In this document: positions 12,301-18,300 of the stretch, one piece after another | Numbering within the stretch: the first letter of the stretch is position 1 | Layout of the letters: each line of letters starts with the position of its first letter | Assembly (NCBI RefSeq): GCF_003790525.1 | Contig: NZ_CP033635.1 | Source of the DNA: Escherichia coli | GTDB taxonomy: Bacteria; Pseudomonadota; Gammaproteobacteria; Enterobacterales; Enterobacteriaceae | Length of the DNA: 64,000 nucleotides | Strand: one strand, 5' to 3' | Program-made: the position numbers

Positions 12301-15300
12301 TGCGCGGCTTAATTGCCCAAAGCCAATTTGCGTCGCTTTCACGCTCGGTCCTTCGTCGCGGTCGAACGGGTTAAATCCCGTCTGGCGAATAATGGTATTA
12401 AGCCAGTTCTCACCAAAGGCACAACTGCGACCGTACAACCAAATCTGATTAATATTGAGGATGTTGAGGAAGTTATACAGACTCAAACCAATGGCGTTGG
12501 CAGAGCGATCAACCCAACTGGTGATCCACGGTTCTCCACTCTGCCAGGCAGCGATTAACTGCGCGGTAGTCAGTTTTTCAGGATCAAGCTGAGTATTAAC
12601 CGGTTGTGATTTTAGCCATACCCGCGCCTGTTTTTTTAATGCGCTTAACGAGGCGACGGTTTCCAGGCAGCCGTAACGCCCGCAGTCGCAGACGACGCCA
12701 TCCGGATTAACGATGGTGTGACCAATTTGCCCGCTACCATACAAACTGCCGCGATAAATTTGCTCGTTAATCACGAACGACGAGCCAATGCCGTAATCAA
12801 CGTTGATCACGCAGAAATCCCGTTCCTGCGAATTATTTTGCCATTTCTCCGCCAGCGCCAGCATCACGCAGTCATTATCGACCATCACCCGAATGCCGAG
12901 CTTCTCTTCCAGCAGATACTTTACCTCAACCGGCGTTGTCCACGGCGCTTGCGGCATGGTTTGCGACACGCCAGTCACCGGATCAACCTGACCGTGGATT
13001 GCCAGCGCCAGGTTGATGGTACGGTCCGGCCACAATTTACGGTGGCGATGCCAGCATTTTTCGATTTCGGACAGCAGCGCCTGCGGCGTCGGTGCATCAA
13101 TCTGTAAATACTCAAATTCACCTTTCGGACTTAAACAGGCGTTAGCGACCTGACACTCAATACTGGTGGGCGTCACGTTCAGGCACAGCGTCCAGTCACC
13201 TTCCGGCGCAATCAGCCATGTACCGCTACTATGCCCGCGCGTCTGGCTTTCATCGTCGATATTTACCACCCGTTTTTCGCTTTCCAGTTCCTGCAAAATA
13301 TTACTGACTGCCGGAATCGAAATTTGCGCCAGCCGGGCCAGCGTTGATTTATTGGCGCGCTTTTGCCGGTACAGCAGTTCCAGAATCACGCATTTGTTAT
13401 GGTGGCGAATCTGTTGATTATTAATGCAGGCTCTCATCTTCACTAAACCTTGTTTAGTTAATTGCGTGATTATTCCGCGAAAACATTGCCAGATTGTTCA
13501 ATACACTGCCACAAATCTTTTAATTCAGTATGTCTTGTTAATATTGAGGGCACCATGACTCCAGTAAAAGTGTGGCAAGAGCGCGTTGAGATCCCGACCT
13601 ATGAAACCGGGCCGCAGGATATACATCCCATGTTCCTGGAAAATCGCGTTTATCAGGGATCGTCCGGCGCGGTTTATCCCTACGGCGTGACCGATACGCT
13701 GAGCGAGCAGAAAACCCTGAAATCCTGGCAGGCGGTGTGGCTGGAAAATGACTACATCAAAGTGATGATCCTGCCGGAACTGGGCGGTCGGGTGCATCGC
13801 GCATGGGATAAAGTGAAACAGCGCGATTTTGTCTATCACAATGAAGTCATTAAACCTGCGCTGGTGGGGCTGCTGGGACCGTGGATCTCCGGCGGGATTG
13901 AGTTTAACTGGCCGCAACACCATCGCCCGACCACCTTTATGCCCGTTGATTTCACCCTCGAAGCCCATGACGACGGCGCACAGACGGTGTGGGTCGGCGA
14001 AACGGAGCCGATGCACGGTTTACAGGTGATGACAGGTTTCACCCTGCGTCCTGACCGGGCGGCGCTGGAAATCGCCAGTCGCGTCTATAACGGCAACGCC
14101 ACGCCGCGTCATTTCTTGTGGTGGGCCAACCCGGCAGTGAAAGGGGGTGAAGGGCATCAGAGCGTCTTCCCGCCGGATGTAACGGCGGTGTTTGATCACG
14201 GCAAACGGGCCGTCTCCGCTTTCCCCATCGCCACCGGCACTTACTACAAAGTGGACTACTCCGCCGGAGTGGACATTTCTCGCTATAAAAATGTGCCCGT
14301 TCCAACCTCATATATGGCTGAAAAATCACAGTACGATTTTGTTGGCGCGTGGTGTCACGATGAAGATGGTGGTTTGCTACACGTTGCCAACCACCATATT
14401 GCGCCAGGTAAAAAACAGTGGAGCTGGGGACACAGTGAATTTGGCCAGGCGTGGGATAAGAGCCTGACTGACAATAACGGCCCGTATATCGAACTGATGA
14501 CCGGTATTTTTGCCGATAACCAGCCTGATTTTACCTGGCTTGATGCTTACGAGGAGAAGCGTTTCGAGCAGTATTTCCTGCCTTATCATTCTCTGGGCAT
14601 GGTGCAAAATGCCTCCCGCGATGCGGTGATAAAACTCCAGCGTAGTGAGCGGGGGATTGAGTGGGGGCTGTATGCCATCTCTCCGTTGAACGGATACCGC
14701 CTGGCGATCCGCGAAATCGGCAAATGCAACGCGTTGCTCGATGATGCCGTGGCCCTGACACCAGCGACCGCCATCCAGGGCGTGTTGCACGGTATCAATC
14801 CTGACAGACTGACCATTGAGCTCTCCGATGCCGACGGCAATATTGTACTGAGTTATCATGAACATCAGCCGCAAGCGTTGCCGTTGCCGGACGTCGCCAA
14901 AGCGCCACTGTCAGCACAAGACATTACCAGTACAGATGAAGCCTGGTTTATCGGTCAGCATCTGGAGCAATATCATCACGCCAGCCGTTCACCGTTCGAT
15001 TACTACCTGCGCGGCGTGGCGCTGGATCCGCTGGATTATCGCTGTAACCTGGCGCTGGCGATGCTGGAATATAACCGCGCCGATTTCCCGCAAGCGGTGG
15101 CGTATGCCACTCAGGCGCTGAAACGCGCACATGCGCTGAACAAAAATCCGCAGTGCGGACAGGCCAGTTTGATTCGCGCCAGTGCTTACGAACGTCAGGG
15201 ACAATATCAACAAGCCGAAGAGGATTTCTGGCGGGCGGTCTGGAGCGGCAATAGTAAAGCAGGTGGCTATTATGGTCTGGCACGACTGGCGGCGCGTAAT

Positions 15301-18300
15301 GGTCACTTCGATGCTGGTCTGGATTTTTGCCAACAAAGTCTTCGCGCCTGCCCAACCAATCAGGAAGTGCTTTGCCTGCATAATCTGCTGCTGGTGTTAA
15401 GTGGTCGTCAGGACAACGCGCGTTTGCAGCGCGAGAAACTGCTGCGCGATTATCCGCTGAACGCCACTCTGTGGTGGCTGAACTGGTTCGATGGTCGTAG
15501 CGAATCAGCCCTCGCGCAGTGGCGCGGTCTGTGTCAGGGACGCGACGTTAACGCCCTGATGACCGCCGGGCAACTGATTAACTGGGGAATGCCTACCCTG
15601 GCGGCAGAGATGCTGAACGCACTGGACTGCCAGCGCACGCTGCCGCTTTATCTGCAGGCGAGTTTATTGCCGAAAGCCGAACGCGGCGAACTGGTCGCAA
15701 AAGCCATTGATGTCTTCCCGCAGTTTGTCCGTTTCCCGAATACGCTGGAAGAAGTGGCGGCGCTGGAGAGTATTGAAGAGTGCTGGTTTGCCCGTCATTT
15801 ATTGGCCTGCTTCTACTACAACAAGCGTAGCTACGGCAAAGCCATTGCCTTATGGCAACGTTGCGTAGAGATGTCGCCGGAGTTTGCCGACGGCTGGCGC
15901 GGGTTAGCGATCCATGCGTGGAATAAGCAACACGATTATGAGCTGGCCGCGCGTTATCTTGATAATGCTTATCAGCTTGCGCCGCAGGATGCACGTCTGC
16001 TTTTCGAACGGGATTTGCTGGATAAGTTAAGTGGAGCCACACCGGAGAAACGACTGGCGCGTCTGGAAAATAATCTGGAAATTGCGCTGAAACGCGACGA
16101 CATGACCGCAGAACTGCTCAATTTGTGGCATCTCACGGGTCAGGCAGACAAAGCGGCGGACATTCTCGCCACGCGCAAATTCCACCCGTGGGAAGGCGGG
16201 GAAGGGAAGATCACCAGTCAGTTTATCCTCAACCAGTTATTACGCGCCTGGCAGCATCTTGATGCCAGAGAGCCGCAGCAGGCCAGCGAACTGCTTCATG
16301 CCGCGCTGCATTATCCGGAGAATTTAAGCGAAGGCCGTTTACCGGGGCAAACTGATAACGACATCTGGTTCTGGCAGGCGATATGCGCCAACGCGCAGGG
16401 AGATGAAACTGAAGCGATGCGTTGTTTACGTCTGGCGGCGACTGGCGATCGCACCATTAACATTCACAGTTATTACAACGATCAGCCGGTTGATTATCTC
16501 TTCTGGCAAGGAATGGCGCTGCGACTGCTGGGCGAACAACAAATCGCACAGCAACTGTTTAGTGAAATGAAACAGTGGGCGCAAGAGATGGCGAAAACCA
16601 GTATTGAGGCGGATTTCTTTGCTGTTTCACAACCTGACCTGTTGTCGCTGTATGGCGATTTACAACAGCAGCATAAAGAAAAATGCCTGATGGTGGCGAT
16701 GCTGGCGTCCGCGGGACTCGGGGAGGTTGCGCACTATGAATCTGCTCGCGCTGAATTGACGGCGATTAATCCGGCCTGGCCGAAAGCGGCATTATTCACC
16801 ACTGTGATGCCTTTTATTTTTAACTACGTTCACTAAACCCTATTAACTGTAATATTTGAGCGGCACGCGCTGCCGCTCACGCTCAAATAATTAAAATAAG
16901 CCGTTGTAAATAAAAACCCTACAGGAGGCACTATGCCTAAAAAAATGAGAACAACCCGTAATCTATTATTAATGGCTACGCTATTAGGTAGCGCACTATT
17001 TGCCAGGGCTGCGGATAAAGAAATGACCATTGGCGCAATATACCTTGATACCCAGGGATATTACGCTGGCGTGCGTCAGGGTGTTCAGGATGCGGCAAAA
17101 GATTCTTCAGTACAGGTACAGTTAATTGAAACTAACGCCCAGGGTGATATTTCGAAAGAAAGTACCTTTGTTGATACCCTCGTGGCGCGTAATGTCGATG
17201 CCATTATTTTATCGGCAGTGTCTGAAAATGGCAGTAGCCGTACCGTTCGTCGCGCCAGTGAAGCGGGTATTCCGGTGATTTGCTACAACACCTGTATTAA
17301 TCAAAAAGGCGTCGATAAATATGTCTCGGCGTATCTGGTCGGCGATCCGCTGGAATTTGGTAAAAAACTGGGTAATGCTGCCGCCGATTATTTTATTGCC
17401 AACAAAATTGACCAGCCGAAAATTGCCGTCATCAATTGCGAAGCCTTTGAAGTTTGTGTGCAGCGACGTAAAGGGTTTGAAGAAGTATTAAAAGCCCGCG
17501 TTCCCGGCGCGCAAATTGTCGCTAATCAGGAAGGGACTGTTTTAGATAAAGCGATTTCCGTTGGTGAAAAACTAATTATCTCCAGGCCGGATCTCAACGC
17601 CATTATGGGTGAATCGGGCGGAGCGACACTCGGCGCGGTAAAAGCGGTACGTAATCAAAATCAGGCCGGAAAAATTGCTGTTTTCGGTTCGGATATGACC
17701 ACTGAAATTGCTCAGGAGCTGGAAAACAATCAGGTGCTGAAAGCGGTAGTGGATATTTCCGGCAAGAAAATGGGCAATGCTGTTTTCGCGCAAACATTGA
17801 AGGTTATCAATAAACAAGCCGACGGTGAAAAAGTGATTCAGGTGCCTATCGATCTCTATACCAAAACGGAAGACGGTAAACAGTGGCTGGCAACGCACGT
17901 TGATGGTCTGCCCTAATCGCTGATTCGCAGAGGTCCCTATGTTCACGGCAACAGAGGCAGTCCCGGTAGCAAAAGTGGTGGCAGGAAATAAGCGTTATCC
18001 CGGCGTCGTTGCGTTGGATAACGTTAACTTCACGCTCAATAAAGGCGAAGTTCGTGCGCTGTTAGGCAAAAACGGCGCGGGCAAATCGACCCTCATTCGA
18101 ATGCTTACCGGTAGCGAACGTCCGGATAGCGGTGATATCTGGATTGGCGAGACGCGACTGGAAGGTGACGAAACTACGCTGACTCGCCGTGCCGCTGAAC
18201 TGGGGGTTCGTGCGGTTTATCAGGAATTAAGTCTGGTGGAAGGGCTGACGGTGGCGGAAAACCTCTGCCTCGGTCAGTGGCCCCGCCGCAACGGCATGAT

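Follow-up and report, generated by a model that had tools for sequence, protein, structure and literature searches.

The Escherichia coli core protein YphG: a predicted mutarotase-fold and TPR-solenoid protein with a candidate role in handling galactose-family sugars

Described relatives and the predicted fold of YphG

The subject of this study is yphG, a gene encoding 1093 amino acids plus stop at positions 13555..16836 (+ strand) of a 64,000-nucleotide stretch of Escherichia coli DNA (contig NZ_CP033635.1; hereafter, the window). Few E. coli core genes that still lack a function are as large. The gene, its assignment to DUF5107, and the crystal structure of a homologue are already public, and no functional study of YphG or of the DUF5107 family was found in the literature that we searched. 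The structure (PDB 5cd6) is that of BDI_1685 from Parabacteroides distasonis, an uncharacterised structural genomics target which, like YphG, is a DUF5107 "TPR-domain containing protein". At 575-580 amino acids, it is about half the length of YphG, to which it is 21-24% identical, and it is missing the distal ~400 residues of the solenoid (including the HPWEGGEG motif with E880), as well as H122, D214, and H280/H281.

Other described systems resemble YphG in part. The aldose-1-epimerases (GalM, 1l7j; YphB, 3nre; YeaD, 2hta; the hexose-6-phosphate mutarotase 2ciq; and BSU18360, 3mwx) are 5-15% identical to YphG. What sets YphG apart from them is an N-terminal extension of 50 residues, long loop insertions that are conserved, the second β-domain, and a solenoid of 630 residues. 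The rhamnogalacturonan lyase of polysaccharide lyase family 4 (PL4; 1nkg) and the β-1,2-glucanases OpgG/OpgD of glycoside hydrolase family 186 (GH186; 1txk, 8x18) are supersandwich enzymes that are structurally farther from YphG than are the epimerases. They show that the supersandwich fold can be catalytic but, unlike YphG, they are secreted or periplasmic, act on polysaccharides, and have no TPR domain. The solenoid of YphG is similar to those of TPR proteins such as Cdc27, PilF/PilW, the TPR domain of OGT, and the designed CTPR proteins. Unlike the solenoids of those proteins, it is fused to, and apparently wrapped on, a sugar-type domain, and carries invariant polar residues that are specific to the family.

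What is new in the present analysis is the placement of the YphG fold relative to true epimerases, a putative site at a domain interface, a galactoside-related genomic context that crosses phyla, and the finding that the link to the neighbouring transporter is lineage-specific. We favour, with a probability of roughly 45%, the reading that YphG processes carbohydrate in the cytoplasm, most probably as an enzyme, and that it handles a galactose-family sugar just after its uptake.

Open reading frame (ORF) calling, translation, and the RefSeq annotation agree on the 1093-residue product that an earlier, sequence-only reading of the window had proposed. Its statement that YphG has no signal peptide also held, as Kyte-Doolittle means over 19 residues reach no more than 0.04 within residues 1-40; nor is there a membrane segment, the maximum over the whole chain being 1.22. 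The DUF annotation to which that reading had alluded is DUF5107 (PF17128), which Pfam matches to residues 39-324 (187 bits, E = 5.1e-55). The TPR-like repeats that it placed in the C-terminal part were borne out by TPR_16 matches at residues 499-560 and 754-813, and by structural matches of the helical part to Cdc27, PilF, and designed TPR proteins. The same reading had described the first ~500 residues as rich in Trp, Tyr, and Gly. The non-helical part does contain 3.3% Trp, 4.4% Tyr, and 4.2% His, roughly double what the adjoining proteins of the operon contain, but shows no enrichment in Gly (8.2% vs. 9.1%), and it ends earlier, at about residue 435-460.

We modelled full-length YphG with AlphaFold2, using the family alignment and no templates, and obtained a predicted local distance difference test score (pLDDT) of 94.6 and a predicted template modelling score (pTM) of 0.92. 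The model comprises a large β-sandwich (residues 1-345; 13555..14589, + strand), a small all-β domain (residues 357-435; 14623..14859, + strand), and a solenoid of ~35 helices (residues 460-1092; 14932..16833, + strand), against which the sandwich is predicted to pack rigidly. Residues 1-345 are modelled in the aldose-1-epimerase (galactose mutarotase) fold, with the mutarotase core starting at about residue 50-60, behind the N-terminal extension. The nearest structural relatives of the sandwich are epimerases, not glycoside hydrolase (GH) or polysaccharide lyase (PL) domains, and a structure search with a model of the domain alone ordered the relatives cleanly. A placement of the N-terminal domain in a well-characterised non-enzymatic family was looked for and did not emerge. 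The solenoid is built from repeated helix-turn-helix pairs and belongs to the TPR superhelix group. Among the AFDB50 matches, the full-length fold is kept down to 18-26% identity, and all of the matched proteins are labelled DUF5107 or TPR, with none characterised. One of the matches is from a eukaryotic alga, Aureoumbra lagunensis (A0A7S3JMS0). Separately, no PADLOC defence-system family matched YphG at E up to 0.001, and an anti-phage role was rejected.

Conservation and the putative functional site

An exhaustive homologue search with residues 1-490 of YphG as the query recovered 3965 cluster representatives, 895 of them at E ≤ 1e-30. The best homologues are mostly 1040-1160 amino acids long and align across the whole query, and the full architecture is therefore old and widespread. 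Counting one genome per species, there were at least 596 matching stretches, and homologues occur in Enterobacterales, Aeromonas, Photobacterium, many Bacteroidota, Lachnospiraceae, Ruminococcaceae, Paenibacillus, Bacillus, Bifidobacterium, and Ktedonobacter. Residues 1-450 of E. coli YphG are 52-58% identical to homologues from these groups, including those of Bifidobacterium, Ktedonobacter, and Bacteroidota. Between members of at least five phyla, identity in the sandwich stays above 50%, and constraint of this degree is usually met in central enzymes.

Approximately 110 columns are invariant over residues 1-450, and these are rich in His, Glu, Asp, Lys, Arg, Asn, Gln, Trp, and Tyr. The conserved motifs include SGGIEFNWPQHHRP, FLWWANPA, FDHGKR, PGKKQW.WG, GPYIELM.G, and DNQPDF. 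Two of the invariant stretches are W-I-S-G-G-I-E-F-N-W-P-Q-H-H-R-P at residues 110-125 (13882..13929, + strand) and G-P-Y-I-E-L-M-T-G...D-N-Q-P-D-F at residues 309-326 (14479..14532, + strand). Scored by region in a more diverse alignment of 58 sequences, mean conservation is 0.63 in the sandwich, 0.33 in the second β-domain, and 0.42 in the solenoid, and the columns that are at least 90% conserved number 72, 1, and 20, respectively. Conservation in the solenoid takes the form of polar islands; the conserved residues include W563, W767, R782, E818, R833, F876, and E880, the last within HPWEGGEG (residues 877-884; nt 16183-16206, + strand).

The family-wide core, which YphG has in common with the distant 5cd6, consists of E116, H123, W190, N192, H215, H276, D279, K287, W289, W300, Y311, and E313. 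E313 is invariant in the family, 5cd6 included, and E116 and H123 are likewise conserved in 5cd6. The His/Glu/Trp character of this core would suit a sugar-binding catalytic pocket.

We also modelled residues 1-450 separately, leaving out the solenoid. This model was poorer than the full-length one (pLDDT 74.6), although the sandwich core was still confident. The loss was concentrated in residues 26-37, 112-123, 211-251, 281-302, and 317-324, all of which fell below a pLDDT of 50 when the solenoid was left out, compared with more than 90 in the full-length model. The loops that lose confidence are the invariant motifs of YphG. If, as the models imply, these loops are ordered by contact with the solenoid, then the conserved site would be placed at the sandwich-solenoid interface, and the functional site of YphG probably lies there, next to the conserved solenoid residues.

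The catalytic set of GalM is His/His/Glu (plus Asp). H123, H215, and E313 of YphG are invariant and match that set in chain order, a correspondence of order only rather than of superimposed residues. In a non-significant hhalign alignment, H122/H123 falls within ~3 residues of the His motif "LHG" of YphB. E313 might be the equivalent of the catalytic Glu of GalM.

A distant branch of the family, ~35-38% identical, has signal-peptide-like N-termini (P0213, P0216, P0232, P0175, P0160, P0235, P0242, and P0257). One of its members, P0257, bears a C-terminal CBM9-like module, and another, P0235, is fused to an endonuclease/exonuclease/phosphatase (EEP) domain.

Sugar-utilisation loci and the readings of YphG function

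To describe genomic context, we took 80 loci encoding YphG homologues, one per species, called and clustered the genes, and counted neighbours within 4 genes of the homologue. A sugar transporter is present in 51 of the 80 loci, a galactosidase or GalM in 40, and an AraC or ROK regulator in 51. The most frequent neighbours are a divergent AraC regulator (41/80), a XylE-type sugar-porter of the major facilitator superfamily (MFS), mostly immediately upstream and on the same strand (37/80), and a GH2 enzyme related to the exo-β-1,4-galactosidase BT4151 (1203 bits; 26/80). Less frequent are a ROK regulator (11/80), CUT2 ABC transporter genes (~10/80), GH35-like enzymes (9/80), GalM (5/80), a GH97 α-galactosidase (4/80), and a LacZ-type GH2 (3/80), together with sulfatases (8 loci), SusD (7), and SusC (5). 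The Photobacterium locus encodes a MelB-type melibiose symporter that scores above the curated cutoff. None of the 80 YphG homologues has a signal-like N-terminus, even when the ORFs are extended maximally upstream. In the same loci, signal-like N-termini were found in 27/35 GH2 proteins, 19/20 sulfatases, and 4/5 GH97 proteins, and rarely in GalM and YphB-like proteins. The arrangement reads as one of secreted sugar-releasing enzymes, followed by a transporter, and then by a cytoplasmic YphG.

In marine Flavobacteriia (L016, L024-L026, L043, L046, and L071), the homologue lies in a block of sulfatase(s), MFS transporter, SGNH esterase, GH2, YphG homologue, sulfatases, and GH2. The SGNH esterases accompany the sulfatases, and the block suggests the use of a sulfated, possibly acetylated galactan. 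In Ruminococcaceae (L036, 8801-12123; L040, 13293-17874), a conserved operon is found 3′ of the homologue, which encodes a calcineurin-like metallophosphoesterase, a 428-residue protein (L040 only), a weakly MDR-like dehydrogenase, and a YphC-like Zn-dehydrogenase. A phosphoesterase hint drawn from the EEP fusion in one secreted homologue and the metallophosphoesterase partner in these two Ruminococcaceae was too thin to build on. The context of a metagenomic homologue, P0146, has no sugar genes and is uninformative.

On the reading that we favour, the sugar would be bound in a pocket with the conserved sandwich face (E116, H123, W190, N192, H215, H276, K287, W289, W300, Y311, and E313) on one side and the conserved solenoid residues W563, R782, and E880 on the other, and the solenoid would serve as a lid or wall of the pocket, rather than as a docking platform for proteins. 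Acid/base catalysis at the anomeric centre, similar to that of the mutarotases, would then convert the imported sugar from one form (anomer, ring form, or close isomer) to the form needed downstream. In most phyla, the downstream route would be the Leloir pathway and, in the E. coli-type operon, oxidation via the YphC dehydrogenase to the galactonate pathway. This amounts to a testable proposal for YphG, namely that it acts on galactose-family sugars, in the cytoplasm, after import, with E116, H123, H215, and E313, together with W563, R782, and E880 of the solenoid, as the candidate catalytic residues. Were YphG catalytic, it would supply a step that is missing from the use of galactosides by Bacteroidota of the gut, by Lachnospiraceae, and by marine flavobacteria, and its active site would be one to which a TPR solenoid contributes.

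Several observations weigh against this reading. YphG does not belong to the aldose 1-epimerase family by sequence or profile, since it has no PF01263 match even at E up to 10, and hhalign comparisons of DUF5107 with YphB-like and GalM-like alignments gave probabilities of 0.1-2.2%. A profile search of PDB sequences with the YphG family matched 5cd6 alone, and with hhalign at ≤2.2%, a sequence-level link to the mutarotases was rejected. Comparison of motifs indicates that the second catalytic His of the mutarotases may be replaced in YphG. The main difficulty is that the canonical mutarotases YphB/GalM are co-encoded in some YphG loci, and a plain mutarotase role would therefore be redundant; YphG may thus act on another form of the substrate or catalyse another reaction. 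The solenoid, at ~650 residues, is far larger than a lid requires. In 9 of the 80 loci there is no transporter, galactosidase/GalM, or regulator, and at locus L082 sugar genes were not found nearby. Finally, the literature searched yielded no biochemical, genetic, or expression evidence for YphG.

It is possible, and we put it forward tentatively, that the DUF5107-TPR proteins make up a carbohydrate-active enzyme family of a new kind, which carry out an undescribed step in galactose or galactoside metabolism, with an active site between the mutarotase-fold sandwich and the TPR solenoid. To our knowledge, this is not a known catalytic architecture. Candidate reactions are a furanose/pyranose or other ring-form conversion, or the cleavage of a small galactoside. 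If this were so, the step would be common among bacteria of the gut, of soils, and of the sea, and would belong to the core genome of E. coli. The suggestion of an unrecognised carbohydrate-active enzyme was already made in the sequence-only reading; enzyme-like conservation and the sugar-utilisation loci across phyla speak for it, but the closest fold and profile relatives are not GH or PL modules. More precisely, the closest relatives of YphG are not CAZy catalytic modules, and an (α/α)6 catalytic barrel was not found.

The more specific proposal that YphG cleaves glycosides, as a hydrolase, phosphorylase, or lyase of a new CAZy-type family, would have it cut a small imported galactoside in the cytoplasm, after which YphB/GalM equilibrates the released anomer. 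The mutarotases co-encoded in some loci would fit such a role, as would the transporters of oligosaccharide type found in others (CUT1 permeases and the MelB-type symporter of Photobacterium), and both PL4 and GH186 show that the fold can catalyse. It is also in keeping with the distant secreted relatives, with their signal peptides, CBM9-like module, and EEP domain, and with the listing of DUF5107, an indicator orthogroup of phagotrophic MAST stramenopiles, among digestive enzymes (PMC8163842). However, the sandwich is closest to epimerases, the dominant linked transporters are of monosaccharide classes (MFS sugar-porters and CUT2 ABC), neither a catalytic carboxylate pair nor a lyase Tyr/His could be assigned, and YphG has zero matches to glycosidase models in Pfam or NCBIfam. 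We consider glycoside cleavage the less likely reading, but a serious alternative.

Unlikely, in our estimation, is a non-enzymatic sugar sensor or adaptor, in which the mutarotase-like domain would bind sugar and the TPR part recruit a partner, for example a regulator, a transporter ATPase, or a metabolic enzyme. The regulator gene near the homologue in 51/80 loci is what such a protein might need, but the adjoining regulators come from unrelated families (AraC or ROK) and are absent in many loci. Because they vary by lineage, it is unlikely that one and the same partner has been conserved, yet identity in the sandwich is at least 52% between phyla. Moreover, the solenoid has few conserved residues, which are polar, the invariant loops of the sandwich seem to be packed on it, which would fill the groove, and secreted relatives with a CBM9-like module are ill-suited to cytoplasmic signalling. 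A role of YphG as a dedicated accessory to the ABC transporter YphFED, as the order of genes in E. coli and in its three nearest relatives in the locus sample might suggest, is hardly credible, being contradicted at locus level by the 76/80 homologue loci without yphFEDCB, by the pairing of most homologues with MFS transporters, and by the YphF-type cassettes of Aquitalea, Rhizobium, and Agrobacterium that have no adjoining yphG.

The E. coli operon and its control region

The sequence-only reading had yphG leading a transporter operon. As far as gene order is concerned, this is correct: yphG is followed on the + strand, after a 96-bp gap, by yphF-E-D-C-B, of which yphF, yphE, and yphD (16933..20473, + strand) encode the binding protein, ATPase, and permease of a CUT2-type monosaccharide ABC transporter, and yphC and yphB (20506..22484, + strand) a Zn-dependent dehydrogenase and an aldose-1-epimerase (PDB 3nre). 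The link with the transporter does not extend beyond close Enterobacterales, however, as yphFEDCB lies beside yphG in only 4/80 loci (L002-L005; E. albertii, two other Enterobacteriaceae, and Budvicia), and it is thus lineage-specific. Enterobacterales paralogues at ~54% identity (Citrobacter, Hafnia) are found in loci composed of a ROK regulator, the YphG homologue, an MFS transporter, and a YphB-like epimerase. Enterobacterales thus have two paralogous lineages, one with the ABC cassette and the other with the MFS transporter and YphB-like epimerase; examples are P0019 from Klebsiella pasteurii (75% identity), P0115 from Klebsiella oxytoca (55%), and the homologues at loci L007, L008, L010, and L011.

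In the reverse direction, we traced YphF orthologues at 57-69% identity to their contigs. No DUF5107 gene was present at the YphF-type cassette loci of Aquitalea (L083), Rhizobium (L084), and Agrobacterium (L085), although these are loci and not whole genomes, so a distant copy of yphG is possible. The co-occurrence of yphG and transporter implied by the sequence-only reading thus failed at these loci, which carry the cassette alone, and with both present in just 4/80 loci, it is not obligate. Aquitalea (9001-18192) has the whole cassette of binding protein, ATPase, permease, Zn-dehydrogenase, and epimerase, with pilus genes upstream, and Rhizobium and Agrobacterium (both 9001-17100) have the transporter and epimerase together with a GMC oxidoreductase, a dehydratase, and a GntR regulator. 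Genes adjoining the cassettes encode galactonate dehydratase (649 and 725 bits; cutoff 311) and 2-dehydro-3-deoxy-6-phosphogalactonate (KDPGal) aldolase (285 bits; cutoff 207), as well as a lactonase-type SGL protein and an SDR. These are steps of the De Ley-Doudoroff galactose pathway and suggest, by analogy, that YphF/YphC/YphB of E. coli may import galactose, or a sugar closely related to it, and supply the galactonate pathway by oxidising it. Given the cassettes without yphG beside galactonate genes, the E. coli operon juxtaposes two separable modules, ROK plus YphG and YphFEDCB, and both point independently to galactose-family sugars.

The gene itself is well preserved in E. coli. Over 3.6 kb, the window and the chromosomes of SMS-3-5 and other E. 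coli strains agree at 100% identity, the RefSeq label in SMS-3-5 being "yphG: DUF5107 domain-containing protein", and yphG was found in 5424 of 5426 complete E. coli genomes, in every case on the chromosome. The start codon is the ATG at 13555, which is located six bases 3′ of GAGGG. A mechanical ORF list extends the gene to a TTG at 13462 (1124 amino acids), but we regard this extension as an artefact because homologues begin at residue 1-6 of the E. coli protein and a ribosome-binding site precedes the ATG. Truncated products are recorded in some E. coli assemblies (P0002, 955 amino acids; P0009, 900; P0028, 741; and P0042, 643), which could be pseudogenes or assembly breaks.

Divergent to yphG is yphH (12244..13437, - strand), which encodes a putative repressor of the ROK family (NagC/Mlc-like), and has been called the third uncharacterized ROK repressor (PMC4288165). 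The region between the two genes (13438..13554) is highly conserved in DNA alignments from Escherichia to Budvicia. It contains TTATTCCGCGAAAAC at 13470-13484, which resembles NagC/Mlc-type ROK operators and is a candidate YphH site. YphF was induced on levoglucosan along with XylF, MalE, MglA, and YtfQ (PMC8753852); this looks like general catabolite derepression, and was rejected as a specific clue. Directly 3′ of the yphG stop codon, RNA folding predicts a hairpin in the yphG-yphF intercistronic gap (16853..16889, + strand), with a GAGCGGC/GCCGCTC stem, a folding free energy of -22.5 kcal/mol (z = -2.1), and no T-run. The stem is retained, and the loop varies, across four Enterobacterales, with loop differences in E. 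albertii, Enterobacter sp., and strain RIT691, and the hairpin may set differing mRNA levels for yphG and the transporter genes.

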